Of a stretch of 64,000 nucleotides of DNA, positions 30,742-63,483 are shown piece by piece. The notes under the pieces are model-generated. The model made no database searches. It saw nothing but the letters and a program-made list of their open reading frames with translations, and had not been told where the DNA came from. The position numbers and the translations under genes are program-made. The DNA lies in NCBI GenBank assembly GCA_965644315.1, contig CBFFRQ010000013.1:248001-312000 (forward strand), written 5' to 3'. Every line of letters begins with the position of its first letter. Position 1 is the first letter of the stretch. This stretch comes from Caecitellus pseudoparvulus. Taxonomy: Eukaryota; Protista; Bigyra: Bicosoecida.

Positions 30742-31081
30742 CCCGGACTCATGACGGATTTGAATGAGTAGGGTGCATGTGCAGTGGTCCCATTGCTCCT
30801 CCACTTGGCAAGCACGGGCCGCCCCTGAGCAGCGCCTGAGTGAGATTTTCGGCCGGGGGGCAAGCCTGTGTCAAGGGGGGGTCGGGGGCCATTTGGGCAC
30901 ATCGCCCTGAGTTTGACCATCAGACAGGGAAGGTCAATTCAATGCATCACCCTGCACACCAAGCAGAGCGATGGTATGCGCCTTCTTGTACCCCCGTGTG
31001 CCCCCGCGCGAAAGTGCGGAACTTGCTAACGGCTGCGCCACGCTAAGTGACAGCCGCGGGAGCTGAAGCCTGGGCGTCGAC

Positions 31082-38532: not shown

Positions 38533-40101
38533 ATGGCTGAGGATGACGTGCAGGCCCTCGTACGTACCAGCTGCCAGCTCACGTTGCATTCCCGCTCGGA
38601 GCTACTCCAACCGCTGGCGCGCAGCGCCGCCACGGCACCCACTCCTCAACCAAACACTCCGTTCTTGTCTTATGCAGGTGGTCGACAACGGCTCCGGTAT
38701 GGTGAAGGTGCGTGTTGCCGCGTGCTCGCAGTTTGAAGTTGGCGTGTTGAACTCTTGGCCACACCAGCCACTACAGCATCTTGCACTTTGCTCTCCCCCT
38801 ACGCCCCCCACAGGCCGGCATTGGCGGTGACGATGCTCCCCGCGCTGTCTTCCCTTCCATCGTCGGGCGCCCCAAGCACCCTGGCATCATGGTGCGTCTC
38901 GAGCACTGCTCGCGTTGCAGAGCTCTCTGCGGCAGTTCCGCACCACGCTTTGAACCACGTCAGCGGACCGCACACTCGACTCCTCTCTCCAAACTCAGGT
39001 GGGCATGGACCAGAAGGACGCCTATGTCGGTGACGAGGCCCAGTCCAAGCGCGGTGAGTGTTTCCTGTCACGTTCTGTGTGCTTGCCCTTGTGCAACGTG
39101 CACTGCCACCACGCCGGAGCAACCTGTGCTGCACCTTTCTCTCCCCGCGTGCAACCGCAGGTGTTCTGACCCTCAAGTACCCCATTGAGCACGGCATCGT
39201 GACCAACTGGGACGACATGGAGAAGATCTGGCACCACACCTTCTACAACGAGCTGCGTGTGGCCCCTGAGGAGCACCCCGTTCTGCTGACCGAGGCCCCC
39301 CAGAACCCCAAGGCCAACCGCGAGCGCATGACCCAGATCATGTTCGAGACCTTCAACGTGCCCGCCATGTACGTGAACATCCAGGCCGTCCTGTCCCTGT
39401 ACTCCTCTGGCCGCACCACCGGTGCCGTCCTGGACTCTGGTGATGGTGTGTCCCACACCGTGCCCATCTATGAGGGTTACGCCCTGTCCCACGCCATCAA
39501 GCGTCTGGACCTGGCCGGCCGCGACCTGACCGACCACCTGATGAAGATCCTGACCGAGCGCGGGTACACCTTCACCACCTCTGCCGAGCGCGAGATCGTG
39601 CGCGACGTCAAGGAGAAGCTGACCTACGTCGCTGAGGACTTCGACGCCGAGATGAAGGCCGCTGAGGAGTCCAGCCAGGCCGAGAAGCAGTACGAGCTGC
39701 CCGACGGCAACACCATCAAGATTGCCAACGAGCGCTTCCGCTGCCCCGAGGTCCTGTTCGACCCCTCCATCATCGGCAAGGAGGCCTCTGGCATCCACAC
39801 CACCCTGTTCGACACCATCATGGCTTGCGACGTCGACATCCGCAAGGACCTGTACGCCAACATCGTGCTGTCCGGTGGCACCACCATGTTCCCCGGCATC
39901 GCCGAGCGCCTGACCAAGGAGATCACCGCCCTGGCACCCCCCACCATGAAGATCAAGGTGGTCGCTCCCCCCGAGCGCAAGTACTCCGTGTGGATTGGCG
40001 GCTCCATCCTGTCCTCTCTGTCCACCTTCCAGAGCATGTGGATCTCCAAGGAGGAGTACGACGATGCCGGCCCCAGCATCGTCCACCGCAAGTGCTTCTA
40101 A
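38533..40101 (+). CDS. ACT: Actin; exons 38533-38559, 38678-38707, 38814-38891, 38999-39053, 39161-40101
   Basis: Spliced product [21 protein letters not shown]...[10 protein letters not shown]; four GT-AG introns of 106-118 nt; strong C-ending codon bias. Confidence 0.99.
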
Positions 40102-40406
40102 ATTTGCAGCCTCGCAGCGGAAACTGTGCCTCGGGCTGTGTCCGTAGTAGCAGTTCGTCCTCCACGGCTTTGCCATGTTGAGGCATTTGGTGCTTCCTGG
40201 TCTTGCTAAGGATGATTGGCTGTCTCGAAATGCACTGCTCAAGGCATTCTCACTTGTTTTCATAGTTGTAGGAAACGGTGGCGCACTTTGAAACGCGACT
40301 CAAGCTCACAATCCTCACACCCGCTGTTACTGCAGCGGATTCTGAACACCTCTGCACGAGCTTGCAAAGCCTGTGCATTGGGTTTCGCTTCCTCGCGCCT
40401 GCAGCC

Positions 40407-43400
40407 ATGGCTCGCACGCGCCAAACAGCCCGCCGCGCCAGCGGTCGGGCTCCACCTCGTCGTCCGCCAGGACGCCGGGGTGGTGTGCCTTCCTCCTCTG
40501 GCTCCATGCAGTCATCGTCTGCTCAGAGTGTTCCTTGCCGTACGGTGCCTCCCAAAGCGGCCATATCTGACGACGACCTGCTGAAGCTGGGCTTGGAGAC
40601 GGTGCGTGCACGTTGGCGTGGTGGGCCACACCCTCGCTGCGCCCTTGCCTGAACAGCTTGTCGCCAGCCTCGCTGACCTTGCCCCGGCATCCTTGTAGCT
40701 CCACGCCCCACACCACAGGTGCTCAACAGCGAATTCATCCTGCAGCGCCACGTCGCTCGTGATGAAGACCTGGAAGAGTGTGAGTGATTCCCGCAGGTGG
40801 GCAGCAAGGGCACTGCTCTGAGCGGGCACCTGGCGTCCTCCCCTCGCAGTCCGGACGGTGCAGACTGATGCCCAGGCTCTACAGGCCTCTTCCACCTCTG
40901 TACGTGCTGCTTGCTTGCTCTGTTCTTCTGCAGCGACGCTTCGACCGGCGAGGGAACAGAGGTTGCTGGCGCAGCGCCACCACGCCAAGGCGTGCCCCAT
41001 GTCCGCTTGCCGATCGCATGGCATCAAGCCGTTGCAGCTCTGCAGGCCGCCCCTCTACGAGGCCCTGCAATCCGAAGCTGCACTAGCACCACTTGTCATC
41101 GCCATTTTCCATCCTCCTTTCGTCCTCGTCCCGTGCGCAGGAGAGCAAGCGCGAATACGCCAGCGCAGGCTATGGCGACGAGGGCGACCGCTCAGCCAAC
41201 GCCTACCGTCGCGCCCGCGAGCTTGCAGCTTTGTCTGTGGCTGGAAACTCGGGCTTTGCCGCGACCGTCGCGCGTCGAGGAGCCAGCCTGCTGCGCTACT
41301 ACCGCGCTCAGAGCAAGTCAGCGGAAGGTGCGGGAGACACAGCTCTTTCCGTGCAGCCTCCTGGCCCCATCGAGCTGCCCCCTCACGAGGACTTTGCCAA
41401 GCGCGCTTCCTCTGCCACCCTACTGGTCCTGCTGGAAGATGCTGTCCTCCGCAACCCCCTCCTCGCGCTGCGCCTGCTGACTGAGGTGGCCAACCTCTTG
41501 GCCCAGTCGCCGGGCAAGCTGCACCCGTTCCAGGCTTCCCAAGGGGCTGTTTCCTTTGGCCAGGCGAGTGGACAGCCTGGGCAGCTGCAGTTCTCCATGG
41601 ACTCCATCGCCAAAGTGGCTGACCTGCTCACCCGCGTTGCGGCCGGCCGTCTGCCTGTAGGGTCCCAGTGGACTGCGCCCGAAGGCAGCCCCGCTGGGGC
41701 GGAGGATGCCGTGAAGCGGCTGGTCCGCCTGGCTGCCTTGGAGACGCTCCTGTACATGACTGCTGCACGGCAGTCCTTGACGGATGCGCTGCGCGCCCTG
41801 AACCTGCTCCTCTTTGTTGCCCCTGACGAAGAGCTGGACGTGCACGGCGTCGTGGAGGCGCTGTCCCTCACCACGTCTGGGCCCAGCATGCCCATTGCCT
41901 TGCGCAGCTCGCGCAAGCATTCCTTTGTCATGCAGAGCTCCTTCCTGTTCCTGGGAGGCGCTTCGTCAGTGTCCCAAACTTCTGCAGGCAAGGCTGCCCG
42001 CCTCGCGTCCAAGCTGAAGTTCATGTCTGTGGCCAGCGACGGCACGTACCTGTACGCGCACTCCAACTTGGGGCTGACCAAAATCGGAACAGGGCAGCGA
42101 GGCACGACTCCAGGGAATGTGTACCAGCACTTGACCGGCTACCGTGCAAACCAGCCGTCCTCCATGGCATGTGTGGGCGGCATGCTATACCTGCGCGTCG
42201 AGGACGCAGGTGCCACCGAGGACAGGCCAGCAACGCCATGGCTTGTGGCCATCTCCTGCTCCTACCTGCAGGAGGTGGGAACAGTGTCCCTCGCAGGGGC
42301 CTCCACGCCCTCGCTGCCCACCGTGTCCCCCGCTGCTGCCCTGCAGGTGGCGCAAGCCCTCGCAGCAGCCAATGTCGACCCAACACTGACCCAGGCCGTC
42401 ACGGAAGCCACCGCAACAGCCGCTGCCGGTGCTGGCGCACAGGCTGGGCAGACCCCGCTGTCTGCGGCGGCTGCTTCAGCCATGAGTCAGGCCGCTTCAG
42501 ACGCGCTGTGCAAGGCTTCATGGCGCATCACCGGTGATGGCACGTTGCTGTACGGCCTTGCCGCTCACAGTGTCATGACGACCGACGACGCGCTGCCGTT
42601 TGCGGTGTCCCGACGGGTGAAGCAACTGGATGCTGCCGAGGTGCCAGCCGCACAAGCCGCTGCTGGCGAGACGAAGGAGGAGGAGGCCGAGGCTGAAGAA
42701 GCTGGGCTGGAAAGCAAGGAAGACATCTCTTCCCCTGCCCCTGAACCAGAGGGAGCACCTGAGGGCGACAGCCAGCCAGAGGCCACCCCAGATGAGCCAG
42801 TTGATGCTGCGACTGGCGCAGCTGTTCCTTCGGAAGAGGTAACTGTGTCCCTTCACGCCTTTGCCCCGGGGTCGAAGCTGAAGGGGAGTGACGGCGATGA
42901 GGAGGCATCCACCGTAGGCATGTCCCACTTGAAGTCCTTGGTGCTGCAGCGACCAGCTCGCAAGGCGTTCCCCGCCAGCGCCATGCTGTCCTTTGGGTCC
43001 GTCGTGCAGAACAGCACAGCGATCGCAGGGCTGGGCATGGCCATGTCGGCGGCCGCAACATCCAAACTTGACGAAGCCGACTCCAGGTCATCCTCAAAGA
43101 AAGCATCCAAGCGCCGCAAGCAGATGAAGGACGCGTCCAAGGCGGCCGAGGCTGCCTCTGCCTCCATTGCAAGCTCCATGTCCTGCCCCGGTGTGCACAT
43201 CCCAGGCGCACCACACTTGCGAGGGCACCGCAGCCTGACTCTGGAGACTTGGGTGCGCATGGACTCCGTCTCCCTGGCCAGTGGCCCGTCTTTCGGCTCA
43301 CACTCAAGTGGGGGGTTCTCCAAGGCGGGTTCCAGATCTGGGTTCGCTTCGAAGGCAGCTCGGAAGGGGGCCACCTCTGACTCTGAGGATGACGCAGGTG

Positions 43401-46400
43401 ACGGCACCCAGGATCCAGAGGCCAAGAACAAGTCCATCAACGAAGCCAAGCACTGGACGGGGATCGCCGAGGAGGCGGGGGATGCCAAAGTGGCCCCCGT
43501 CTTTGCCATTGGCCCTGCCGCCGGCCGACCATCTGGGCCCACCTCAGGTCGCTCCCTGTCCTCGAATGTCGCTGAGGACCCCAGTTTGATGGTCGTGGCT
43601 TCCCCCGGCAAGCTGCACATTGCCATCAAGTACTACAAGGGCGCGCTGCCGCACCCTGTTTCTGTCCCTGACGCACCGACCACCGGCAAGGCAGTGTGCG
43701 GGGACGCCTCGGTGCGCTCCCAGGGCGGCGGCGGCCACACGAAGCGCACGGAGCGCATTTACGGCGTGGCAGACATTCCCGAAGCCCCCTGGACTGACGC
43801 TTCCACGACTGATCAGTGGCTGCACGTGGCCCTCGTGGCTGACGCAGAGGCGGGCGCTTTTGTCCTTCTGGCCAACGGCCAGGAAGTCTGGCGCCAGGAT
43901 GCCGGTGGCATCGATGTTGTGGCTGCTGTGGCATCCATCACACAGGGCAGGGACGTCTTCTCCACGCCGAAGGCGACTTCCACCGTGTCCTGGGCATTTG
44001 GTGGCGTGTACGAGGGTTGCTCGGGCCAGGTGCAGCCCAATTTGGCCAAGGTGCAGGTAGCCTACTCCCGAGTCTGGTGCACTGCGCGAAGCACTGAGGA
44101 CATCGCAGCTGGCATGCGCACCGGCTTCGGCTCAGCTGTAGACACCGCAGCTGCCATCGCAGAAGCTCCATCCGCGGCATCCGCCCGCTCAATGGAGAAG
44201 GACGACGAGAGCCTGCTGCCAGCCAGTGTTTCGGATGGCCTGATCGGCTGCTGGCCTTGCGACGACGGATTTGGGGTCCGTGTTGCAGATTTGAGTGGAT
44301 TTGCCAACCACGCCACGCTGCTTGGCATGTTCTGGGTGGACCCTGCAGTTCCTGCACCTGTCACGGCCCCAGAAGTCGTTCCCGCCGCGCCGGAGGCTGG
44401 CCAGGACGGGGGCTCCGACGAGGCACGCATCTTGGCTCCTGCCCGCTTTTCTCGAGAAGCACTCGCTCGTGCCAATGTGTTCACGAATGGCGAGTGCCTG
44501 GGGGTGTATTTCCCGGTGGAAGTCGCCCGCAAGGTTCTCAGCTTGAGGGCTCTCTCTCGCTGTGGGCTGTACCAAGTGTATGAGCTTGCCACTGGCGTTG
44601 CCATCTCAGAGCAGCTGGTGCTGGAGGGTGTGACGTCCATCGGGTCGACCAGTGCTTTCGTGGCCCCCAGCACCATGTACGCGGTGCACCTGGGCTCGTA
44701 TGCGCTATCTGCGGCAGTGACACAGCCAGATTCCAAGCTGGCTTCCGTCGTTGCAAAGGGCACTTTGGATGCCTTTTTCTCTGATGGCATCTTGCCCAGC
44801 GCCCGCTACCCAACGGCCACACTGACTGTCGCCCCATCGGGCTCTGGGGCACAAGACTCACCGAGCGGTATTGCCGTCGACCAAGTGTCCGTGTTCCCAG
44901 CCCAGCGCACGCCCAAGTGGGCCGCCAGCCGAACAGGCGCAGTGGCCAAGTCGAACGCTTCGTTCGCCCAAGCAGCCAGCCTCATTTGGGCGCGCCTGTC
45001 ATCTGAGGAGTCAAAGGACTCAGCCCTTGCATCCACGGCAGAGGCTGTGAATGAGGCGTTGTCCACATCTGGTGATGAGCGCGGCAGCCTCACAGACGGC
45101 CTTGCGACTCTAGACCGTGCTGCCCGTGCAACCACGGCTGCCCGGGACGACCTGCTGAAGACACTGCAAGCAGCACAAAAGTCTGCCGAGGAGGCCGAAG
45201 AGGCAGATGCCGCTGCTTCGCTGCCTGCTGGGCATGACCGGGTGTCTTCTGCCCTGGGGCGCCTCGTAAGTGACTTCCCTGTGTACCAGGGGCGATACAA
45301 CCAGGCCCTGGAGGCCCTAGGTATGCCGCCATCTTCCCTGGGCATTGCAGGGGCTGAGTCCCTGGGCGTCGTTGCAGGCGGGCAGGAGAGTGATCCGTTG
45401 GAGGGCATTCTGGGCGCTGACGACGTCTCCGCTGTGTCCCTCTTTGGTGCCGAGGCCACCAGCACGCAGCCGTCTCCGGCAGAGCTTGCCGCGAAGCAGC
45501 ACGCAGATGCCATCAACGCTGCATGGCCTCGCTTCCACTCGTCAGTTGTCGCGCACGTGCTGCTGCAGCATGTGCAGTCTTCGTGCAGCCAGCGCTCCAT
45601 TGAGCTGGCCATGGCAGCAGATGCACGTGCTGCTAGTGCACAGAGTGCCCAGCAAGCCAAGGACAACAAGTCCAAGTCTTCCAACCAAGCGAACACAGGG
45701 AGCGGAGGGTTTGGTGCTACGTCGTCTGGAGGCTTTGGCAACGTTGCCTCTAGCGGTGGCTTCGGTGGCTTCGGTGGCGCCCAGTCTTCCAGCTTCTCGT
45801 TCGGCAACGCAAGCTCCTCCGGCGCCTTTGGCAACACCTCTGGCGGAGGATTCGGCAGCTCCCAGCAGCAAGCCCCTGGCTCCAGCTCCAGCGGCGGCAG
45901 CGGCTTTGGCTCGGATTCCCAGTCCCACCCGCAGTTCGGCGCGGCACGCATGACTCCGTCCAGGCCCATGTCTGTCGAGCTGAGTGCGGATGCCTTCTCC
46001 GCCCTGCGCGGGCTCCTCGCGAAGTTGTCTGCTTCCTACGCAGCCCTGCGTGACGTCTCTGCAAAGGTCGCGTCGGCCATGCTGACTGGCGCCGGTGCCA
46101 GCGGCGACGGCCCTGAGTGGCGCACTGGCTCAGCCCAGAATGCCCTGCTCACCCAAGGGCTCGTGGTGTGCTTGCAGGTTTTCCGCTGCAATCTGGAGCA
46201 TCTCGTTGCATGGAAGATGTCCCCGTCTGCTGTTGGCTTCTCCGCTGGCGCAGCGGCGGACTTCTCGGCAGATATCGCCGCGGCGCTCATTCCCACCGCC
46301 CAAGCCGCGAAAGCAGACGCCGAGACAGCCCTAGCAAAGGCTTCTTCCCAGCCCCCCCTCGCCGCGATGCTGCACCGACTGGCCAACTCTACCCTGCCTG

Positions 46401-49400
46401 TCACGGGCACCATCCGTGATGGCGCCCTGGCTCCCGGCTGGGACCAGAACGAGGCAGCCGCCACTGCCGCCGCGACAGCCCTGTTCATCACTGCTGCTCG
46501 CCGGCGGTACACGGGGCAGCTGGCAAAGGCGCCATTCGTTGACACGCTCAAGTGGCTCATGGAGGTGTCCCCTGCTGCCAGCCTTTCAAGTGAGGTGTCC
46601 CACGCTCTGCACACTGAAATCGCTGAGAGCTTGTCTTTGGGCATGCCAGTCTTCTCGACCACTGCTTCTGCAAGGCTGCGCCTGCTGTCAGGACTGTTGG
46701 CCCAGCAGCTGGGCGTTCACGCCACCCTGCCTGCAGCCGGAGCAGACGATGGTGGCGCAAGCGAGAGCAAGTCAGGTGCCGTCGTGTCTGCTGCCTCCGG
46801 CGCGGACGGACTTGACGCCTGCGTCGCAGCCGCCACGTCGCAGGACGACCAAGACAAGCGCAACCTGCGCGAGATGCTAATGGCACGCTACTTCAGTGCC
46901 ATGTCCAAGCCGGCTGCCGTGTCGCAGCTGTTGAGTGCTCTGAAGAGCTCGTCTTCCTCCCGCAGCGGGGCAGTGTTCGCCTCTGGGTGTGTCCCTGGCG
47001 AACTCTTGGAGGCCCTGGTCATGGTGGGCGTGGACGGTGAGGGGGCAGCCGTGCAGAAGGACTTTGCGTCGCTGATGGAGAACTCCACCAAGCTGCTGCT
47101 GCAGTTCACGGAAACTCGCATGCTGAATGCCCTGGCTGCCGCGGCGGCCCAAAGCGAGGGTACCGCCACGCCTGCAGTCGGGTCATCGCTTGACCAAGTC
47201 CCCGAGCACATCTCTGCTCTCGCAGCATTCCTGCTGCAGACGCAAACTGTCATGCTGTCTCGGGCCCTGTCCAACCCCAAGCCACGCAACCCCTACTTCT
47301 CGTACGGTCTCAAGTACTGCCACCGCATGCTGGCCAGTGCAGCGGAGCTGGTTGAGTTTGCGAATGCGTCGGAAGAATGGCCTACGTCTGCAGCGGACGC
47401 CAATGCCGCGCTGCTGGAAACGAAGGCGGCGGTGGTGTCCATCTTGCACGACCAACTGGGCTCGCTGCTTTCATCCATGCTGTCTGTCTTGGCAGCGCTG
47501 CCCATGTCGCTGTTGACAGCATGTGCAGTCCTCCCCACCCTGCAGCGCTTGCTGAAGGCACTGGACGCGCTGTCCCTGGGTCTGCCTGAGGTCGTCTCGG
47601 CTGAGGCTGAGGACGCCAAGGGCTTGCCCAAGTGGGCCATGACCACCAAGCGAGTGGCGCTCGAGACCAAGCACCCCGTGCCGCAAGGGTCCACACAGGG
47701 CACAGTTCACATCCCAGGCGCCAAGAACATGCTGCTGAAGTTTGACGATGCGGCCTTCTCGAACTCTGGCGGGGGCGGCGGTGCTGGTGGCCAGGGCGTG
47801 TCCATCGCGCTGTACTACGACGCAGACATGCAGAAGCCTGTGCCCAACGGTGTCTTTACCCTGCCCTCATCGGGCTCAGCACCTCAGCGTGGTGGCAAAC
47901 GCTCTTCCTCTTCTGATACACAGGGCATGGGCACGTCCATTGACGACTTGATGCCAGACCTTGACGTTGTCGGGCAGGGCGCCTCGGCTTCTGGGGCCGG
48001 CGCAGCCGCTGTTGTCTTCGACGAAGACCTCGTCACCGTTGCTGACGATTCGCAAGGGGGCGATGAGGAGGAGGAGGAGGAAGCTGAGGAGGTGTGTCCC
48101 TATGCCAACGCCTCGGCTCGGGACCGGGCCATCTGCGAGGCAGTGCAGGACAGCGGGATGAGCAGCAACATCTTGAGCAGCGTGCGCAACCAAATTTCCA
48201 GCTTGGGCTCCACTGTGAACCAGTTTGTGTCCAACCAAGGCTATGACCCCGACACCGCTGTGTCTGCCTTGAACACCGAGTATGGCTACTCCACACAGCT
48301 GGTTGGGCTCTTCCAGGTGTACTGTGACGTGTCAGGCACACCGCCCGATGCCGTGGCCATGGGTCCCGTCAGTGAGGAGAACGTCGCAAACGCCATCTAC
48401 GCGTACGCCAACGACCCCAGCGCCTACGGAGCGCCAAGCCTTGAGCAAATGCTGATGAACCAGATCGGCGTGTCGTTCAACGAGGTTGACTTCATGTCGG
48501 CGTCCAGCGAATCGCAAGCGTCGCGTGGCAGCGGGCCACAAGCCACACCAGGCGCACTGCCGAAGGCTGGCTTCCGCGTCAAGGGAGACACCGTGCACAT
48601 TGTGTACAGCACTGGGTACCAGAGCGGCTGCTGGGGCTTCCGCGTCGCTGCCGCCGCGAAGGTTGGCTCTCAAGTGGTCTCCCTCCCTTGGCTGCTGGAC
48701 GTGCACCGCAACACCGCCTTGCTGGCAGGCCGCCTGGCGTACACGCTGACGGTGGGAGGCTGCCACGACGAGCAGACTGGTGATGAGGACCCGCTCTCTG
48801 TGCTGACTTCCCTCGCCTCCAAGGGCAAGAAGGAGGCCCTGGCCCAAGGAGGCGAAGCTGCTGCTGAAGCGACCGACTTCCTGGAAGACGCCGCTTTCCT
48901 ACTGGAGGCGTCTGCTGATGGGGACATTGGCCTTATGAGCAGGACCACCGAGGCATCTGCTGCGACGTGGTTGTCCTCGGAACTGACGCACGGTGGCCTG
49001 GTGCTGTCAGCCCAGGAACGCATGTTGGAAGCCCAACACTCCAACGTCTTCCACAAGGTGGTAGATGCTGTTGGTGGTGCAGAGGGTAGCTTCGTGGGTG
49101 GCGCTGGCCTGGACAGCTCTGTGGCTTCCGGGGAAGACGTCGTGTCCTCGGCCATGGCGCTGGTGCAAAAGCTCGTGCCGGTCATGGCCGCTGCCAAGGT
49201 GCGCACTGACAACTTCCCAGTGCCGGCAGATGTGAAGCCCATTGTGATGGAGACCATCCACCACATGGCAGCAGTGCTACTGCACCACAACCACCTCCTA
49301 GCTGACGCGCGCGCGTACTTGGAGGAAGCCTCGGCTGCCATTGAGGCGCGCGAGGCAGCTGTGGCTGCTGGCACTGCCACGGGGCCCAAGCGCTGGAAGG

Positions 49401-52400
49401 CCCCCGCGCCCCCCGCACCTGTGGCCAGGGCCTGGCAGACTGCCCACCGCATCAAGCGCTCGCTGCGGTCCAAGTTCCAAGCGCACTCCCTTGCCATCAC
49501 AGCAGCTGCCAAGGAAGCGATGGGTGGGGAGAAGGACGGCGCAGAGGTGGAGCTGGGTGACCTCGACGTGGACCGCGTGGCCATCTACCGTGACATGTGC
49601 AACTCCATCCGCCAGCGGTGTGACTTGCTCCTGGCCTTCGTCCCTGTGCCGCTACCTGTGCCTGACACGCCAGACCTGGCATTGGCTCGTTCGTCTTCCA
49701 CAGCCTCTTCCGGTGGCGGCCTGGAGCAGCTGGCAGACACCGCCCAAGAGGTCGAGGAAGAGACAAAGGCTGAGCCTGGCAAGGAGAGCGAGGAGGCCCG
49801 CAAGGAGCGAGATGCCAAGGCAGCGCTCCTGGCCTGGCAAGCACTGCAGCGCCGGGGCGGGAAGGTGTCCCTGAAGGCAGCCACGCCTGATCAGCGCCAT
49901 GGGCTGGTGTGGCGCTTGGCGCACACGCTGGCAGTGGACTCGGACATCCCCGTGGGGATTGTGCGTGCTGCCGTGCTGTCCCGCCGCCACCGCGCGACAC
50001 TGCGCATCGCAGGTGTGAACGCCGTCCACGCCCTGCTGTCAGGCATCTCCACGCCTTCCGCCCAGCGGGAGATCATCGCGCAGGTTTTCCCCGCGCTGTG
50101 CTCTACCCTGTCTGAGAGCGAAGAGGGCGCCCCCGCTACCTTCCTGCATGGCACCGAAGGCTGCGGAGAGAGCCTCGGCGCCCTGCTTGAGGATGCCTTC
50201 GTCCGTCTGTACGGTCTGTACGTGAACATGCTCAAGTGGGCAGGGAAGGAGCCCGCTGCGGCTGACGGCCCCAGCACAATCACGCCCGTCAGCGTGCCGC
50301 TGCTGCAGGCTGTCCTGCGAGCATTCGCGCTGAAGTACACCAAGGAGCAGTACAGCGCGGTCGTGGACATGGGTGTGTACAACGCCCTCTTTGGGCTCCT
50401 GAACACCATCCGCTCCCTGACAGGCGAGAGCGACCAGGGTGTAGCCTCCACTGCTGACGAGCATGCCGGCTTTGCGTCCCTGCAAACGTCTGTCTGGTCC
50501 CTTCTGGACCTGCTCTCCACGTCCTGGCTGCGCTTGAACCCGTCGGCAGGCTCGCTGGTGGCGGAAGTAGGCGTCCCGCCGCCGCCAGAGGGTGCTGCCC
50601 TTTCTCTGCAGCGCGGCGCCTCCATTGGACGCTCAGCAATTTCCTCTGGGCTGTCCCCGGTATTCCGTATCCTGGTCACACAAGTTAACGCCATTGCTGG
50701 GCACTACGCCACTGAGGCGCTGCTGCCGGGTGGTGTGGAGTCCAGCGCGCTGTCTGCTCTGAAGCCGAGCGAACGCCTCGTCAAACTGCGCAGCATGCTC
50801 TCCTCCTCCACCGTCTCCATGCTCTCCTCCTCTTTGGTGGGCGTGCTGTCCGGCAAGGTTACACGCAAGTCCAAGCGTGCCGCCACTGCAAAGCAGCCGG
50901 CGCAGCTGAGCATGGCAGAAGCCATGGCAAACAAAGTCGCCGCTGCCACCGACGGTTTCGGAGGTGTGGCGCCGGGCACTGGTGTTGAGCCTTCTGCCAA
51001 GTCTCGCCCAGGAAGCTCCTCTGCCAAGGGGTCCTCGACCAAGAGCCAGGAGCTGCGTGACGATGCTGGCGAAGCAGAGGAAGACGGCATGTATGTCGAC
51101 ACCTTCACCATCAAGTTGCTGAACTTGGTGTACACCGTTGTGCAGCTTCGGGAGGGGCGCGACGCCCTGCTGCGCTCTGGCACGGAGCACTTGCTGCTGG
51201 CTGCGCTGCTGCGGGGCAGTGCGCCTGCCGGCACCACAACCACGGAGATCACCCACGCAAGTGGGCACCCGCTTGCTGCCTTGTTCTCCATCCTGCGCCT
51301 GGGGTCCCCCAGGGCTCGCCATGTGGTGGCACGCATCTTGCGCAAGCTGCTTGCCCGTGAGGACGCGGCGCTGGACAAGACCCTGTCCAAGAAGCGCTCC
51401 CGTGTCGGCTTGGGGCAGGCGCACGTCGCCCCCCTGCTCGCAGAGGCAGATGACTGCATGCTGCTCGGGCTGGGAGATGCCTCGGGCGTCCTCCGCACCG
51501 CCTCCTCTGGCATGGAGAGCAAGGATGATGGCAGTGCGAGCCACGGCCCGCTTATGGACGACCTGGCCTCACTGCGCGGGGCACCCCCCACTTCGTGGGA
51601 ACAAGGGCAGGTGACGGCACTCCCCCTGCTCGCGCTGGTTGGCAAGGCAGGCGTGGCGCACGTCGCCGCGGCTGCGGGTGTGAACAACGCGTTGCTGAGC
51701 AGCCGCAAGCACAGCATTGCCACCTTGTTTGTGGAGCTGCAGGAGGCCGCTTCCACAGGCACCGGCGGTGTCGTGCCGGTATACTCCCTTGTGTCCATGT
51801 TGCGGGATATGTGTGCTCGCAACACTGCATGGCGGGCTGCTATCCGGGCCTGTGCCTCGGCCGCCCTTGCCTACATGCCAGAGCTGGTGCAGGGATTGTC
51901 TTCCACAGCCTCGGCGAGCCTCAGCGACCCCCTCCAGGAGGGCGGCATCTTGCTGCCTTCCACACCAGCTGAGCGTCTCATGCAGGTCAAGCTCTTCCTG
52001 GCCACGGGCGCCATGGCGGTGATGGGTGGGTTGGGCACCCCCCTCGTTGCAGGCACCCCAGTGTACAACAGGAGCGCGCTCCTTACCGGCAGCATGCCTG
52101 GTCTGGGCTCTGCAACTGGCGAGACTGGCGTGGTGGAGCACCCAGCCGGGTTCGTCGCAGTCCGTCGCGCTCTGGATGTCGGCGGGCAAGATGCCAAGCA
52201 GCTGAGCAAGGTTGCTGGCACCACTACGAAGACTGGCATCATAGGCGCGCGAGTAGGCATGCAGACAACTGCTGCTCAGTCAGGCGCTGGCGGTGGCCCC
52301 TCAGTGAGCCGCATGGAACAGTTCACGCTCCTGGTGCAGCAAGAGGGCGCCACGGGCGATGCTGACGGCGTCCTCACAGCAGGCGAGGCCACCGCTTCCG

Positions 52401-55400
52401 CGGCAGACACCGACGAAGGCACGTTGCGCCGGGCCAAGGTGGAGGAGTTCGTTGCCACAGCCGAGGTCCCCGTGCGCCTGTCTTGGTTCCTCGGCCCCGA
52501 GGAAGGCGGCTTGACGCCCAAGGGCCTGCCAGCCCTGCTGGGCCAGCTCGTGGACGTCATTGCCTCATCCCGCAAGGTCGGCAACGAGATCCTGTCTGCG
52601 CAGGGCGGCTCAGGCTCCTCTGTCGCTGGGTTCAGTCACGTGCCCCTGCCGCGGCTCCTGCTGCAGTCCATGGAGCTGCATGCCATGCGCCTGCTGCACG
52701 GCATGCTGCACGTGGCGTCCTTGGCGCCCCACCTTGCGGCCCACCCCACTGCCGTGCCGTTGCTCCTGCAGGTGTCCGGCATTGAACAGCCATCGGACTC
52801 TTCGAAGCGCGCTGAAATCGAGGAGGACCTCACTTCTGCGGAAGCGCTGCAGTGCACTGCGCTGTCCACCTCCCGCGTGGAGGACCGCCTGCTGGCTGTC
52901 AGTACGGTCCTTGGGCGCCGCATGAAGGTGCCTCTGGATGTCCGCATGCGCATTGTCCCCCCCACTTCAACTGAGAGTGCAGATGCTGCAACTAAGTTCG
53001 GCATCGTTGTGGGCGATTTTTCCCTGGCTGAAGCCGAGGGCGCCGGCTCCACGGACCTCCCAGACGAGGCGGCATCCAGCCAGCAGCAGAGGCTGCTCAC
53101 ACCAGAGGAAGCAAAAGCTCTGCAGGACTCACAAGAGGCAGGGGCAACTGTCACCATCCATGCTTCCAAGTACTTCGGTGGCGAGCTGTGTGGCCGCCTG
53201 TGTACGGCTGTGGCTGCCAAAGCGGCAGCATCCCAGAGCGCGGCCGTTAAGTCAGCTCCTATGGCTGCAACCAAGGCATCTGCCCCTTCAAAGGCATCTG
53301 CACCCTCAGGCTTCGGTTCCACGGCAGGCGGCTCTGCAGGCGCTTTTGACTTTGGCGGCCGTGGCGGGTCCAAGTTTGAGATGAGCATGGGCGGCAGCAA
53401 GGGTGGTGACATGGGCGGCGGTAAGAGTGGTAGCAAGGCGACTGCTTTTGGCGCGCCCACTGGCGGCATGGACTTCTCGTTCCCTGCCAGTGCGCCCAGC
53501 CTCCCGGCGTCAGGCGGTGCTCCGAGCCTTCCTGCCGCTGGCGGCTTGCCAACCGGCAGCAGCTTCGGCGGCGATTTCTCAGCGGCGGCTGGGACGCCCA
53601 GCTTCCTCACAGCCGGCGGGGGCAGTGGAGGCATGGGTGGCCTGCTGGACGGCAGCGACAGCGACAGCGACCAAGATGCAGGCGCGGGTGCATCCTCGGC
53701 ATCTGCTGCCCCAATGGCCATGGCCACAAGCGCCGCAGCCAGCAAAGCTGCAGAGCCCAAGGACTTGCCTGCTGAGCCTGTTGCATACCCAGAGCAGGCT
53801 CGTTTCGTGTACGTTCCCTTGGCTTCCAAGCCCAGCCGTGCCACGTGCGAGGGCGCTGTCGTGCTGATGGACACCCGCATCGACACGTTCAGGACACGCC
53901 TTGTCCAAGCCGAGGCTGCTGGCGCAGTGGGCATTGTGCTGGCTGTGCACGACATTGGCGTCATGAAGGAGCTGGGCCTGAACAACACGCTTGCCATGCT
54001 GAAGGCGGCAGCTGAGAAGGCAGCCGCCGTGGAGGCCTCCAAGGCCAAGGCCAAGGCCAAGTCCTCCAAGAGCAAGGCATCTGGCGCGACAACGGTCGCG
54101 GAGAAGCAAGCAGCCGCGCTAGCTTCGGCGGGGCAAGAGGACACGTCAGCTGCCGACGCTGCAGCGGCCGCCTTTGATGCCGACCGGGAGCTTGCCTCCG
54201 CCATTGCGCAAGGATTGCTCACTCCCCCGGGGCCAGCCCCAGACGCCGCCACTTTCGAGCGGCTGCACATTCCCGTGCTGGCTGTCGACCGCGACGTTGG
54301 CAAGCACCTGCGCCACTCTTTGGGTGTGCCAAACCACGAGGAGCCTGACGTGCAGTACAAGGCAATGATGCTGGCTCAGCTGGAGGAGGAGGGCTACCCT
54401 CGCCAGCTCTGCGAGAAGGCGTGGGCCAAGTCTGATGGCAACGTGCTGCGTGCTCGGGCATGGCTGGCCACCAACGCCAGCTGGATGATGGAGCAGCAGA
54501 ACCTCATGGCAGAGCTGGAAGAAGACGTGGCGGCCGAGCAGGCCGCTGAGCGCAAGGCGCGCAAGGGCCTGGCGGCCATGTCGGAGATGCCTGAAGATGA
54601 GGACGACATTGCAGCCAAGGCACATGCTGCTCTGAAGAAGGCTGTCGGTGGGGCAGGCATGGCTGGCGAAGACGACTTCGGCATGGGGGATGAGTCCGAG
54701 GAAGAGCCAGAGGACGATGGCGCCTTTGACGTCGTGGCTGCTATGAAGGCGGCTAGGGAGGTCATCGCGCCTCTCGTCGGGCCACTAGTGGTGGATGAAA
54801 TGCTCGCGGACATTGAGGAGTGCGAGCCAGATCTGGAGATGCTGTTCGAAATGTGCGAGGAGCTCGTCATGGACGCTGGTGTGGACATTTCTGAGCACGG
54901 GCTGGGCCGAGAGCTCAACGCAGCATACATCAGGCACTCGAAAACCAACCGCAGGAGCAAGAAGGCTGCAGCACGGGGCCTGTTTGAGAAGAAGCCCGAT
55001 GAAATTACTTGGGAAGACCTTCTGTCTGCGGACGTGGGGGAGACGGCACGTGACACCATTGAAGACGACAACGCGATTTGGCCATTGGCTCGGCGATTCC
55101 AGGAATTCGCCAAGGAGGCTTCCAACACTGCCAACTACGACATGGCAGGAGAAGAGGCCCTGGCAGGGGCACAAGGTGGCGCCTCCTGGGCAGCCTCTGG
55201 CCCCAGCCAGCTGTACGAGGATGCGGAATTCTTGGGCAAGCTGCCCTCCAAGTCCACCCAGGAGCTCGTCAGCACTCTGTCCAAGACGTACGGACAGGCT
55301 GCCATGCACTACGCACGTCGTTGCCTAGTCGCAGCCTTCACGTACTGGCCCAACCCAGGACACCACGCGCTGCTGCCTTCACCTCCCACAAAGCCACTGC

Positions 55401-58400
55401 CGCCATTGACGCAGCTGTGCAGCTCGTCCCTCTTGCGCTACGTGCTGCACGTGGGTCTGGCTACGCAGCCATACCCTGCTGCAAGCCCCACACCCGAGTG
55501 GATCGACGTGGATGGAGACGCGGGCACGGACTGCGCCGTCGAGCTGCCCTGTGCCCCGCCATTCCAGGCCCACCTGCAGAACGTCCTTGTTGCTGAGGTC
55601 GTCGGGTACGGGCCGGAAGGCATGGGTGCTGGGTCGGGGCAGGAGGTGTCTGCTGTCATCCTGAAGGACTGCATGGACACCATGGACAGCGTGAAGACTG
55701 CAGGTCAGGCCACGGACAGCGCCTTCCTGGCTGCCAAGGCCAAGGAGGAAGCCAAGAAGGCCAAGGAGGCAGAGGAGGCTGCGGCTGCCGCAGGGGGGCC
55801 GAAGAAGAAGTTCGCGATGAAGGCCTCGGTGCGAGCTTTCGATGCGCCGGATATGGATGATGCTGTGGCTGGCGACTTGGACGATGCACTGGCCACGCCA
55901 GAGGAGGCAGAGGCCAAGGCTGCTGCGACGCAAGTGAACGAAGTCCTCGCCTTGGTGGTCAAGCCCTTCCTGTCCTCGCAGCATGGCGGGCCGACGAACC
56001 CGAACGGGCAGTGCACTGAAATCAAGGTGCCTGGGGCTGTGCGTCTGCGCATCGTTTTCCAAGCGCCCAAGGGGGCTGAGGACGACATGGATGGTTCTGG
56101 CGAGGAGAAGCAAGATGGCGAGTCACCTGCTGCATCCACTCTTGTCGACGAAGCAATTCGGGTGTTCGGGCTTGAGTCCAGCAGCTCCCGAGGGGACAGT
56201 GGGGGTGAACCCAGCAGCTCTTCCTCCGGGCGGGGTGCTGCTCGCCCCGCTTCCAGGCCTGTGGCAGCATCAAGCAGCTTTGGTGGAGGCGGCTTCAGCT
56301 TCTCGCAGCCTACCCCGGCCTTCGGAGGAGGCTCGAATTGGGGCGGCGGCTTTGGCGGTGGCGGTGGCTTTGGCGGCGGCTTTGGTGGCGGCGGCTTTGG
56401 TGGCGGCTTCAGTGGAGGTGCCACTTCGGCCAGCACAGGCGATGCTCAGGAGCTTAGCTTCCCATCGTGCGGCAGCTACCTCCGCTTCTTCAAGGATGCT
56501 GCTGGATCTGGGCACATCCAAGATGTCAACTCCCAGTCTTCCAGCACTGACTTGGTCGTGAGCGGGGATTCCTTGTTCTACAATATCTTCGACAGCAACC
56601 GTGGCACGACTGCCAACAACAGCTCCTTCAACCAGTACATGAGCTATGCACAGAGCCAAGGCCCAGCCTCTGGCCGAACCTACCTCACGTACCGCTTCTT
56701 GGTGTATGCTGAGCTGGACACGTCGCAGAGTGAGGCGGCAGTGCGCGCCGGTGGCCTGCCCTGCACCATGCAGCTCATTGGCATCCAGCTCGAGGCTGAG
56801 GATGCCATCCAGCGCATCCAAGCGGCCAAGAAGGGCTCAAGCGCAGATGGCACCGGAAGCGGTGCGGCTGCTGAGAGCAAGGTGCAGCTTGAGGAGGCCA
56901 AGAGTGCCGCTGGGGATCTGGACCCCGCCAAGCGCTTGCCTCTCCTTCTGCGCTCGCTCTTGGCTGCCTTGCCTTACGCTCCTTCCGGCCGCACAGCAGC
57001 TGCCTGCATGCAGATGGGGGCGCGCCTGTTCCGCAGGTGGGGAGCCAGCGGTGATGCCGGGCTCGCCAAGGTGGACGCGGAGGATGAGGCTGTCCGCTTC
57101 ATCACCGAGCACGTGCCGTTCCTGGACAGGGCACACTCTTGGCTACGCACGACGCTGCTGGCTGAGTGGGCACAGAGTGTGCAGCTGCCGCGCCACGTGC
57201 AGAGCTTGATGGAGATGATGCTGGCCGCGAAGAAGGCCCTGTCAGCTCTGCAGCTTCCCAACTCCCTGGCCGACGTGCCGTCGATTGCTGCCGTCACAGC
57301 AGCTGACCTGGCCGCGCTGGGATTGACCGAGGAGGACTTGCTGGGCGGCGACGATGAGGAGGAGGCTGAAGAGGACAAGGGCGAAGCTGGCCAGGCCTCT
57401 TCCAAGCGCAAGGGGGGAGCCGCTGCTGGCGGCTCTGCGACTGCTTCACCCACACCGGTAGAGGGTGCCGAGGGCACCCCCATTGATGCCTTGGTGGGTG
57501 ATGCTGACGAAGAGCTACGCATTGGCACGTCCGCCCTGCCACGGCGCGTTCGCCAGGCGCAGGCCAAGATGCTGCAGTACCTATCAGATCGGGAGGGTCC
57601 CCAGCGGGTGTCCATGCTGGCCCTGTCCAGCGGCGCTGTGCTGCCAGACTTCGCTGCTGTGAGCACGACAGGCAACAGCGTTCCCAGCATTTTCGCCTCT
57701 GACACTGTGCTTCGAGGCGGCAAGTGGTACTTCGAAGTCGTGTTTGACCGTGTCGCTTCTGCTTCTCACAACGCGTACGCGAGCATGGGCTGGATGACGC
57801 CCAAGTTCGAGGTGAAGAAGCACAAGGCTGGCGTCGTCAACTCCGGCTACCAGCAGCAGCAGCCCCACGTCGGAATGGACCAGCAGGGCCAGTCCTGGGC
57901 CTTCAACGCCAGCAGCCACGGTTACTACCATCGCCAAGCGAATGTGCCCCTGGACCAGAAGTTCCTCTCCAAGAAGAGCTTTGACATGGAGACTGCTGAG
58001 GCTGTGGAGAGCCGCGTGGAGGCCTTGCGCAAAGAGGTGGCTGGTGCCCAAGGCAAGAGCGCCAAGGCCAAGGCGTCGTCCAAGAAGGGTGGCGAGAAGG
58101 CGGGCGCTGCAGCGGATGATGAGGCAGGGGACGCCAGCCCTACGGACGAGTCCAGCGAGGCGTCCAAGATGGCTGCCATGATGGCAGCCATGCAGGCAAG
58201 CGGTGCTGACGCGGAGTCCATGTCTGCCATGATGAGCCAGCTCATGGACATGAAGGCCGGCAAGTCTGGCAAGAAGGATAAGAAGTCCGGCTCTTCCAGC
58301 ACCAACCAGTGGTCCTGGAAGCACGGTGCCATCATTGGGTGCTGCGTGGACATCGACAAGGGCACCTTCTCCTGGGTGCTTGGTGGCGTGCATCACCCGC

Positions 58401-61213
58401 CCGCCTTCAAGGGCGCCATGATCCCAGGCAAGGCCTTGGTGCCTGCAGTGTCCGTCTCCAGCAACTCTGGCATCAGCGGCGTGTCTGTGAACTTCGGGCG
58501 CCAGCCGTTCGTGTTCCCGCCGCCAGAGGGCTACTTGCCTGTCGAGGACCCGGCGCGCCCCTTCTCCTCATGGCTGGCACGCTTTGAGCACGCCGCCGAC
58601 GTGACTCGCCTGGTCCACCAGCGCTTGCCCCTGCCGCACAACGTTGTGAACATGGCGCTGAACGAGGAAGGCTGTGCAGGTGACGCCAAGGCCCTGCCAG
58701 GTGAGTTCGTGTCCGTGGACATGAAGTCCAGCAACTCATCCTCGTACCCCCCGGAAAACTTGATGAATGATGACGAGCACGCCATCTCATACGTGCAGAT
58801 CGGCGGTCAGCCAACGCACATGGTCTTCCGTGTTGCCCCTCGCACGGAAGCAGAGACTGCCGGGGATGGCGAAGAAGAGGGCGATGACGAAGAAGGCAGC
58901 AAGCCCGCCCGCCCGCAGCCGAAGGAATCCTCTGGCGTTGTCATCTCGCAAGTGCAGATCACCTTCGGCATGCCCTACAACTACGGCAACTACCCCGTGG
59001 AGGGCTGCATTTTCGCGTCCCAGCACGACGTGACAGACTTCGGGCAGTTCCAGTGGGCCAACCGCTTCACAGACAAGCACTTTGAAGCTTTCGCCCGCAA
59101 GAAACAGAAGGAAGCCATTTCTGCAGCCAGTGCAGCTGCATCCAAGGAGGGCGACGAAGCCGCCCTCGCCGCCAGGGTTGCTGACGCAGCCTCGGCTGCC
59201 CTGCGCAACCCCAAGACGCACGAGCCTGTGGGCTTCTTCTCCAAGAAGGCGCAGGAGGCGAACTGCACTGTGCAACTTCCGGTGCCGGTGAACGCCAAGT
59301 ACATCGTGGTGAAGTTCATGAAGCCCAACTCTGCTGGCATGCAGGCTTCCTCGTACTACTACGGCGGCAACACCAACGTGGCTGTGCAGTCCATCAAGTT
59401 CATGGGTGTGCTGGCTGACCACCCCCTCGCCTCTGTGTTCGGGTCCCCCTCCTTCGTGCCCAAGGCCGAGGAGCTGATGCGGGACATGAAGGCCCACGCG
59501 CTGAGCGAGAAGGCGGTGTGGACCTCCGAGCGGGATGCCTCCCTGGTGGAGCTGGCGCAGAGCGAAGCGACGAAGAAGGGCATCACGCCCGCCGACTTGG
59601 ACGCTGTCATGCTGACGCCGTCCCCGGAAGACCTCATGCGCTTTGACCCCATCAAGTTCCTGCCGCTGGGCGCCATCCAGGCGCGCTTTGCCATTATCAA
59701 GTACCTGAACCGCCTGGTGACTCCTCTGCTGAACTACGTGGACGTCTCCTCGCCACCTCCCCCGCCATCTGCCACCGAACAGTTGGCCACCATGCGTGCC
59801 ATGGCGACGGGGGACACTGTGGCAGCGGCCGCCAGCGGTGCTGGGGCCAGCCGCGCTGTGGATGAATCCCTCTCCACAGTTGTGCACCGCCTGAAGGGCA
59901 TGTACTTCACCAGCACGAAGATGACGGTGCTGGAGTCCCTGCTGGAGGCCAGCGGTGGTGGCAAGAAGCAGGCCAACCGCGGGGGCTTCGGCTCCTTCAA
60001 CTCCGGCTGGGAGGGCGCCCGGTCCATCCGCATCGCCGTCAACCGCATGCGGGCGAGCAAGGCCAAGGAGGAGCCTGAGACTGACCCTGAGGGCCTGCGC
60101 TCTGTGTTCGGGCAGGTGTTCAGCGCCCTGCGCTACTCTGACTACGCCCGCTTCCGAGGCGCAGGCAAGGGGGACCAGGCCTGGACTGTGGATCTGTTGG
60201 GGGAGGGCTCCATCGACGTCGGTGGCGCCTACCGTGAAATCGTCACCATGCTGTGTGAAGACTTGATGTCTGGTCTGGTGCCGCTGTTCATCCGCTGCCC
60301 GAACGGCGTGAACGAGGTCGGCCTGAACCGCGAGAAGGCCATCCTGAACCCCTCTGCGACATCCCCCCTGCACATGGCCATGTACGAGTTCCTGGGCGTG
60401 CTCTTCGGCATTTCCCTGCGCACTCGGTACAGCCTGCCCCTGGACCTGCCCTCCATGGTGTGGAAGCAGGTCAGCGGCGACGCCCTCACGCCGTCCGACC
60501 TGGACGGCGTGGACAAGCTCTGCCGGCAGGCGCTGGGCTCCATGGCCAACATGTCCGAAACTGACTTTGCAGAGCTGGAAGACACCTTCACCACAAAGCT
60601 GTCTGATGGCAGTGAAGTGGAGCTCAAGCCTGGCGGCCGCAGCATCCCCGTCACGTACGAGACCCGCACGGAGTTCATCGCCCGCGTCATCTCAGCGCGC
60701 CTGTCCGAGTCCAGGGCCCAAGCTGCTGCCATTCGCCGTGGCTTCAACCAAGTCGTGCCGCTGGGCATGCTGTCCCTCTTCGCGTGGCACGAGATTGAGC
60801 TGCTGGTCTGCGGCTCTCCCCGTATCGACATCGACCTGCTGCGCAAGCACTCCACGTACCGCTCAGGGCTGTCTCCCAACCACCCCGTCATCCAGAACTT
60901 CTGGATGGCGCTGCACAGCTTCAGCCAGGCAGAGCGCCGCCTGTTCCTGCGCTTCGTGTGGGGCCGCAACCGCCTGCCGACGCGGGAGGAAGACTGGACC
61001 TCGCCCTTCAGCATCACTGCCCTGTCGTCGTCCCGCACAGACTCGGACGACATGCTGCCGGTGTCCCACACGTGCTTCTTCCAGCTGGACTTGCCCCTGT
61101 ACTCCAACTTCGAGACCATGCGCAGCAAGCTGCTGTACGCCATCACGAACTGTACCGCCATCGACACGGACTTCTCAGCCAATGCGTCTGCCGTGTCCAT
61201 TTGGATGGACTAA
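40407..61213 (+). CDS. Giant (~6790 aa) HECT E3 ubiquitin ligase (HECTD4/HERC-like) with LamG, CUB-like x2, PA, UBA, SPRY and DOC/galactose-binding-like modules; exons 40407-40601, 40719-40779, 40850-40899, 41141-61213
   Basis: HECT motifs LLGEGSIDVGGAYRE, PLFIRCPN, LFLRFVWGRNRLP, LPVSHTCFFQLDLP (Cys codon 61073-61075). SPRY GKWYFEV...IIGCCVD...VNFGRQPF; UBA EGYPRQLCEKAW; PA AEAAGAVGIV...IPVLAV; LamG TLETWVR...WLHVALV...GLIGCW. Three GT-AG introns with matching phases (0,1,0). Confidence 0.9.
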
Positions 61214-62382: not shown

Positions 62383-63483
62383 ATGAAGTGGCAGTTCACC
62401 CCCTTCGGGGAAGACCCACCGCCGGCTTTGCCTGCACAATGGAATTATTTCTACGTAGTCATTGCTTTAGCGCTTGCAACGGTGAGTTGTGGAGAGCAAG
62501 CAGGGGAGGGCGGCGCCTGGCGTTTCGCTGGCGTGCCATGAGCCTTACAAAGCTTGCCACACCTCGAATGTGGTCCCCTGACGCCCCCGTCTTGCAGGTG
62601 GGAGCATACACAGCCATCCAGTTCATTGAGTCGTTGGTACGGACGCCTGCGTTTTCATCCGCCATGGCCTTCCCGACAAGAAGCTTGCCAACGCTGCCTG
62701 CAGGTGGCAACGCAGGAGCGTTTGTCTCGCACAGAAGAGAATCAAAGCAACCTGAATGTGTTTGGCATCCTCGCCGCATCATTTTGCATCGGAGTGAACA
62801 GTGTTTGGGTCATGCACTTCATCAACACCAGCGCTGTGCGCCACGGTGTGAAGGTCGAGTACAACCTTGCCGAGACGCTGCTGAGCTTGGTGTTCATCCT
62901 GCTCTGCGCCTTTGTGGGCATATCCATCACAGCCTGCCATAAGGATGGCTTGCTTGGCCCCCCCAAAGCCTCCACGTACCACCTCACTCGCCTGCGCATG
63001 CCAGCCCCCGGCGCCTCCATCGTGCAGCACCTGAGCTTCATGTTGGAGCAGGTGCAGGACGCCGTGGGCTGGCGCCTAGCCTTGGGCGGCACCATTCTCG
63101 GGGCAGGTGTCGGGGCCATGCATTACACCGGCGTCAACGCTATCCGAGCCAACTTGGAGTTGTACATGGACCCTGTCTGGATGCTGACCAGCGTCCCCAT
63201 CGCTGCTGTCGGAGGCATGGCCATCATCTGGCTCATGTTCCACATGCACGGGTTCGTGAAGCGCTGCATCGCGGCAGTTATTTTGGGAATTGCAGTTAGC
63301 TTTGTGCACTTCTACGCTTACTTTGCCGGGACGTACTCTGCCCTTCCACGCGACCGCTGGGACCCAGACGCGTTTGCAAAAGAGGTCTTGGTAGAGGCGG
63401 AGCCCGCTGTGGTCGCTGCCACGCTGCTCTCCTCCGTCTTCCGCTTCCTCTTCCTTGGCATAATTTCTGCGGGTGCAGAGTGA
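62383..63483 (+). CDS. Stand-alone MHYT integral-membrane sensor domain protein (~305 aa); exons 62383-62481, 62598-62636, 62704-63483
   Basis: Motifs VWVMHFI, GAGVGAMHYTG, FVHFYA, each after TM hairpins; N-terminal VVIALALATVGAYTA is typical of MHYT. Confidence 0.82.

Follow-up and report, generated by a model that had tools for sequence, protein, structure and literature searches.

Why should a very large ubiquitin ligase of a marine protist begin like histone H3, but with the lysines of the H3 tail replaced by arginine? The gene that raises this question lies on the forward strand of the window (the whole 64,000-nucleotide stretch of Caecitellus pseudoparvulus DNA analysed here). An ATG at 40407, in the context GCAGCCATGG, opens an H3-like peptide; the translation agrees with what the initial annotation had claimed for it. 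This is the first ATG downstream of 40230, there is an in-frame stop upstream, and the next ATG is Met34 at 40506. When three GT..CAG introns are taken out, a single open frame of 6792 amino acids remains, ending at 61213. The parts of the gene are given below, with the RNA runs X1 and X3, two close orthologues found by tail-based searches (P0131 and L092) and a homologue (P0052) as points of comparison.

40407..40436, + strand: Met and H3-like residues 1-9 with Arg for Lys4 and Lys9; the conserved core, by amino-acid identity with L092, P0131 and P0052
40437..40505, + strand: decayed remainder of H3 10-18 and an Arg/Gly/Pro/Ser linker; differs between the window, L092 and P0131
40506..40508, + strand: Met34, where an older or alternative start may lie; the start annotated for the Cafeteria orthologue aligns here
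40407..40601, + strand: coding exon 1, 65 codons; donor at the same position in L092
40602..40718, + strand: intron 1, phase 0; joint in X1 and X3, same position in L092
40719..40779, + strand: exon 2, 61 nt; in RNA contigs, 17 of 20 codons with the same residue in L092
40780..40849, + strand: intron 2, phase 1; joint in X3 and, with two letters changed, in X1
40850..40899, + strand: exon 3, 50 nt; in RNA contigs
40900..41140, + strand: intron 3, phase 0; joint in X1 and X3
41141..61213, + strand: exon 4, 20 kb, open to the stop; RNA contigs placed to 43400 only

RNA contigs from four of the 23 listed runs (X1, X2, X3 and X19) were placed on 40130-43400, with X19 yielding none. All three introns are present as joints in contigs of X1 (study P1) and X3 (study P3), two of the four runs, which bears out the frame-keeping introns proposed earlier. 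X2 contigs stop short of the intron junctions, and no contig of the placed runs covers the intron interiors. The two letters that differ in X1 at the start of exon 3 make a synonymous change. An X2 contig runs without gaps from 40335 to 40559, across the ATG, and a spliced X1 contig runs from 40497 to 41897, into exon 4. Since these overlap, exon 1 is joined to the HECT exon as had been suggested, by contigs of different samples and not by one molecule. The X2 contig codes T6S in the tail (one allele); the variants of X2 in the coding part of exon 1 are two replacements (T6S and one more) and one synonymous change.

An actin gene (window region 40101-40407) stops 305 nt upstream of the ligase ATG. 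X2 contigs break off at 40243 and restart at 40335, a weak hint of a transcript boundary between actin and ligase. Immediately before the ATG is an acceptor-like pyrimidine tract (window 40385-40406), with a CAG 2 nt from the ATG, which is unspliced in X2. The same acceptor-like tract is found at L092:270-294, there with the CAG 1 nt before the ATG.

The remainder of the protein was described initially as a ligase of about 6800 residues, which fits the 6792 found and the strength of the HECT match. The following segments were recognised in exon 4.

41141..42290, + strand: family N-domain, a predicted helical region and then the first beta-propeller blades (AlphaFold mean pLDDT 72, pTM 0.46)
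43796..43912, + strand: weak Laminin-G3-like segment (Pfam E 0.005, below cut-off)
53834..53986, + strand: weak PA-domain-like segment (Pfam E 0.0008, below cut-off)
58265..58474, + strand: SPRY domain, matched in part (Pfam E 2.5e-10)
60251..61156, + strand: HECT domain (Pfam E 3e-68; best PDB match HECTD3, E 2.4e-64)
61073-61075, + strand: presumed catalytic Cys6747, located in the HECT alignment and tree set

We predict from the C-terminal HECT domain and the presumed catalytic Cys that the window protein is a HECT E3. It appears to belong to class I, with a SPRY domain and a HECT domain nearest to those of HERC1/2 and HECTD3; HERC2 is among the homologue matches of the ligase. In the HECT tree the window groups with Cafeteria P0003 and with P0004 (SH-aLRT 97), which makes a stramenopile origin of the DNA probable. 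The HECTHe1 and KIAA0614 class I HECTs (Grau-Bove et al. 2013, PMC3673628) have in common with it a HECT domain near HECTD3/HERC2 and SPRY; for HECTHe1, Laminin-G3 is described as well. For the HECTHe1 combination of Laminin-G3 and SPRY, the window has a clear SPRY and a LamG segment below the Pfam cut-off; homologue P0002 has a strong Laminin-G3 match. The word "histone" is absent from the main text of PMC3673628, and no H3-like N-terminus is described there. The N-domain has 69 homologues by HMMER with exon 4 only. Its Foldseek rows are mostly propellers, none reaching E<=0.001, its profile finds nothing below E 0.06 among PDB sequences, and a word-based search among long proteins gave no match. 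A protein labelled Symbiodinium (P0030) clusters with the Cafeteria ligase at 90% identity and is probably contamination.

The likeness to H3 is short in the window and longer in its relatives. Against an H3 reference sequence taken from the PDB alignments to P0052, the window is in exact register over residues 1-9 only and continues A-S-G-R-A-P-P-R-R. Exact register goes past residue 9 in the orthologue P0131, where it holds through residue 18, and in P0052, whose PDB matches span residues 1-29 only. Of the Lys-to-Arg changes claimed at first for K4, K9 and K14, those at K4 and K9 stand in exact register, but the "K14 equivalent" does not, because in the window it aligns only with a one-residue gap. 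The tail gave one match in the window versus none in 100 shuffles, and the chance of the fixed 9-mer by composition is p ~4e-11; a chance match is excluded. No Histone Pfam match was found in exon 1, exon 4 or P0052, in keeping with the earlier statement that no histone fold follows.

A HMMER search with exon 4 alone (exon 1 excluded, the tail not being in the query) gave 69 matches. The top match, P0052, begins with H3 1-25 and has Arg for Lys at 4, 9, 14, 18 and 23. Its first ten residues are the same as those of the window protein, and its body is ~30-32% identical. P0052 is a 509-aa fragment that would, judging from its relatives, have a HECT domain. Its tail is predicted to be disordered (pLDDT ~36) and shows no confident docking on its own N-domain in the model; the ESM Atlas gave no usable match for P0052. 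A single clade of P0052 and the window was rejected (AU p=0.0007, 26 rows), so the tail is either old and lost several times or was gained twice.

In the close orthologue L092, the donor, exon 2 and intron positions match those of the window. Codons 1-10 differ between the two by four synonymous changes and no replacement, and the 26 codons that end exon 1 by eight synonymous changes and two replacements. In the linker 11 of 20 residues are changed (ungapped comparison). The position of Met34 is Met in P0131 and Ile in L092, so the tail ATG must be the start in L092. With the first nine H3-like residues kept in L092, P0131 and P0052, the orthologues do not have a merely Arg-rich N-terminus.

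Elsewhere the tail is often missing. It is absent at the predicted, machine-called start in six of the seven distant homologues that reach the start of the N-domain (P0002, P0004, P0055, P0070, P0103 and Cafeteria P0003/P0031, taken as one count). Most of the 97 homologue matches are fragments or distant families and are not informative on the tail. The N-termini of P0002, P0055 and P0070 are acidic and aromatic at the position of the basic H3 tail of P0052. Across the ligase family, alignments suggest a tail that is conserved but patchy. We consider it supported that a genuine tail derived from H3, with its Lys replaced, is spliced onto the ligase and has been kept by selection.

The same tail is present on other proteins. 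A tail search found 13 proteins among 727 candidates: P0052, P0131, ten of SIMPL/DUF541 type and one unknown. Eight of the ten SIMPL-type proteins pass the Pfam cut-off, P0128 falls just below it, and the fragment P0129 was placed among them by eye. Eukaryotic SIMPL/DUF541 carriers with an N-terminal tail are P0125-P0130, P0132, P0133, L032 and L073; in a separate SIMPL group (P0134, P0135 and L065) the tail is inside a C-terminal loop. The internal tail of P0134 and P0135 is preceded by Gly, and these proteins are ~19-35% identical to the N-terminal SIMPL group. Among eight SIMPL proteins, tails are 77-95% identical versus ~19-63% for the bodies. An ESM Atlas search with P0133 returned only SIMPL matches below 0.9. 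P0136 and L058 represent a 131-aa protein that has no Pfam match and an N-terminus in the Arg form of H3 1-14.

A scan of metagenome DNA for the pattern gave 94 matches, nine with H3-like flanks (6-15 of 15); most of the matches are chance. L092 has a flank score of 5/15 and was recognised through its downstream orthology. A control on prokaryote genomes gave 62 pattern matches, none with more than 5 of 15 in the flanks, and the Arg-form pattern had two matches in viral contigs, both chance-like. Two loci, L056:18-2273 (-) and L028:73-2223 (-), encode VWA-U-box proteins with an H3 tail, and thereby a second type of ubiquitin ligase. These tails have Arg at 4 and 9 and keep Lys18, 23 and 27. 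The GC-rich contigs L022:1728-2141 (-), L012 and L090 encode a true H3 variant (Histone Pfam E 8e-34) in which residues 1, 4 and 9 are Glu, Ser and Arg and the 17-27 region is rewritten. The viral contig L174:898-1332 carries an H3 tail (1-22) that keeps its Lys on a non-histone frame of 144 amino acids.

Lysine was counted in 18 non-histone tails from six groups; the true H3 variant was left out, as were three DNA loci that duplicate or nearly duplicate listed proteins. Lys is kept in 3, 1, 1, 4, 2 and 2 tails at positions 4, 9, 14, 18, 23 and 27, and there is bias in the counts for positions 2-12, which were part of the search patterns, since all tails but that of P0052 came from Arg-bearing queries. 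As the rows are also related to one another, the comparison is given as counts and not as Fisher tests. G12 is present in 18/18 tails and P16 in 17/18. For a viral comparison, 34 matches to a Lys-permissive pattern were obtained, and the 32 with a histone fold were used; these keep Lys in 32, 29, 32, 21, 26 and 25 cases at the same six positions. Position 14 is outside the DNA pattern, and there the seven non-histone DNA matches have five Arg, one Met and one Lys. Replacements other than Arg at position 14 (M, M, C, Q, L) are more numerous than Lys, a sign that Lys itself is selected against. The Lys-to-Arg change also occurs at loci with GC of 0.34 and 0.39, and GC drift as the sole cause of the loss was rejected, as low-GC loci changed too. 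A lysine-poor H3 variant of the organism may have been the donor of the tail.

What the tail is for is suggested by mimics already described. The H3TMs (VRK1, BCL11B, SALL, FOG, TSHZ1; Chen et al. 2021, PMC8166343) are characterised in that paper by a small residue, Arg and X after a removable Met, and when unmethylated they can bind NuRD. The ligase has Met-Ala, for which the rule in PMC8166343 predicts Met removal, and Arg at position 2. Lys4 is defining for H3TMs, and a methylation switch is proposed (PMC8166343); the window, L092, P0131 and P0052 have Arg at position 4, and in the window this switch is absent. The ligase likeness is also 9-25 residues long, which indicates an H3 copy and not a short convergent motif. 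The tail probably acts as H3 N-terminal mimics do, yet stands outside the H3TM definition. A second parallel is PAF15/PCLAF with UHRF1, where an H3-like tip is bound through Arg and Thr and there is a link to ubiquitin; the PHD finger of UHRF1 needs R3 and T4 of PAF15, and the effect of K5A, at the nearly dispensable Lys4 equivalent, is small (PMC7060239). In that case the mimic is on the substrate, which is itself ubiquitinated (PMC7060239), whereas the present mimic belongs to the ligase and is lysine-free. The internal mimics influenza NS1 ARSK and G9a ARKT engage H3-binding proteins and are internal or C-terminal, like the internal SIMPL copies; they are four-residue motifs in which Lys can be methylated and read (PMC8166343), while the ligase tail removes Lys.

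We lean, tentatively, towards the tail being a portable, constitutive and unmodifiable docking handle for proteins that bind the tip of H3 and are insensitive to Lys4. A 5' coding piece of H3 would have been captured upstream of an older start at Met34. With Ala next to it, Met1 would be cleaved off, and A1-R2-T3 would then be free at the end of a disordered arm. A partner that reads R2, T3 and the backbone of residues 5-9, and not Lys4, might then bind the tail as the UHRF1 PHD finger binds PAF15. Without Lys, neither the methylases and acetylases that act on histones nor the ligase could mark the handle, which would make binding constitutive and prevent self-ubiquitination. The bound partner could tether the ligase to chromatin complexes or could be ubiquitinated by it, and we think tethering likelier, since proteins that are not ligases bear the same tag. 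The earlier idea of a bait for degradation would be one branch of this docking model.

PHD-type readers require a free N-terminus and R2 (PMC8166343), and importins bind H3 residues 11-27 (PMC7752055). The window clade keeps 1-9, the reader-binding tip, and not the importin segment, which supports docking. That SIMPL non-ligases carry the tail, two of them internally, speaks more for a general tag, for docking or targeting, than for a substrate bait specific to ligases. Counting against docking are the six of seven distant homologues without a tail, the decay of the window copy past residue 9, the two internal SIMPL copies without a free amino end, the T6S allele in X2, and the Lys18, 23 and 27 retained on VWA-U-box tails. 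With somewhat more reserve, we suggest that protists may have made the H3 tail a portable lysine-free tag repeatedly. The tail would have been captured separately by two lineages of HECT ligases, by the VWA-U-box ligases, by both SIMPL groups and by the unknown protein. All of these would have converged on Lys-to-Arg, giving ubiquitin ligases a constitutive "never-marked H3" ligand with which to find, hold or destroy chromatin readers.

The tail might instead be a borrowed nuclear import signal, a reading we hold to be unlikely though well worth weighing, in which Arg keeps the charge read by importins and the absence of Lys averts acetylation or ubiquitination. Several importins use the 11-27 segment of the H3 tail, and an acetyl mimic at K14 weakens this (PMC7752055). 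Much of 11-25 is retained by the P0052, SIMPL and VWA-U-box copies, the internal SIMPL copies indicate that a terminal position is not always required, the window and L092 linkers remain Arg/Gly-rich, and a protein of 6792 amino acids, if nuclear, would require active import. However, the window clade loses 11-27 and keeps 1-9, including the uncharged Q5, T6 and A7, and uncharged residues stand at K14 in five tails.

We give a rather low probability to a switch written by kinases or arginine methyltransferases, in which the change of Lys9 to Arg makes an R-R-x-S/T site at position 11. R-R-x-S/T is a basophilic kinase consensus. T3, T6, R2 and R8 could still be modified, and the X2 variant T6S retains the hydroxyl. 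The R-R-x-S/T motif is present at 8-11 in 17/18 tails, with Thr or Ser always at position 11 and Ala at position 10 in two, and it is preserved as R8-R9-A10-S11 where the window tail runs into the 40437..40505 region; but positions 8-12 were part of the search pattern. Such a switch also does not account for the missing Lys at 14, 18 and 23. The switch and docking models are compatible and not mutually exclusive.

A functionless relic of an H3 fragment, its Lys lost through GC-biased drift or weak selection against self-ubiquitination, is very improbable. The patchy distribution, the decay past residue 9 and the two replacements against one synonymous change among the X2 variants of exon 1 fit a relic. 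It is opposed by the purely synonymous change of codons 1-10 against L092, by the ten residues shared with P0052 despite ~30% body identity, by Lys-to-Arg at low GC and by SIMPL tails that are more conserved than their bodies.

Least probable, and hardly credible, is a tail left untranslated because the start is Met34 or because an upstream exon is spliced to the CAG before the ATG: the annotated Cafeteria start and the pyrimidine-rich CAG in the window and L092 allow it, but the X2 contig is unspliced from 40335 through the ATG, the different CAG-ATG distances (2 nt here, 1 nt in L092) mean that an upstream exon cannot share the frame, L092 has Ile at Met34, and conservation at the codon level indicates coding.

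As a variant of histone mimicry, the lysine-free H3 tail reverses the PAF15-UHRF1 arrangement. The literature searched, mostly open-access main texts and with the literal motif included, contained no description of the tail or of such a ligase, consistent with the initial remark that no E3 built this way was known. Described histone mimics mostly bear Lys and are read through Lys marks, and a natural, conserved Lys-free tail separates the roles of backbone, Arg and Thr from those of the Lys marks. If docking is true, its place on an E3 would put chromatin readers directly under the control of ubiquitin, or amount to a natural "bait plus ligase". The independent carriers are ready-made peptides with which to ask which H3-binding proteins ignore lysine.

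The window contains further genes on the forward strand. A single open frame at 1-2994 combines a protein kinase domain with one like PP2A B56, and 31067-35035 encodes an FHA domain with at least five SAP repeats after it. A eukaryotic gene at 62542-63483 has repeats of MHYT, a bacterial-type sensor.
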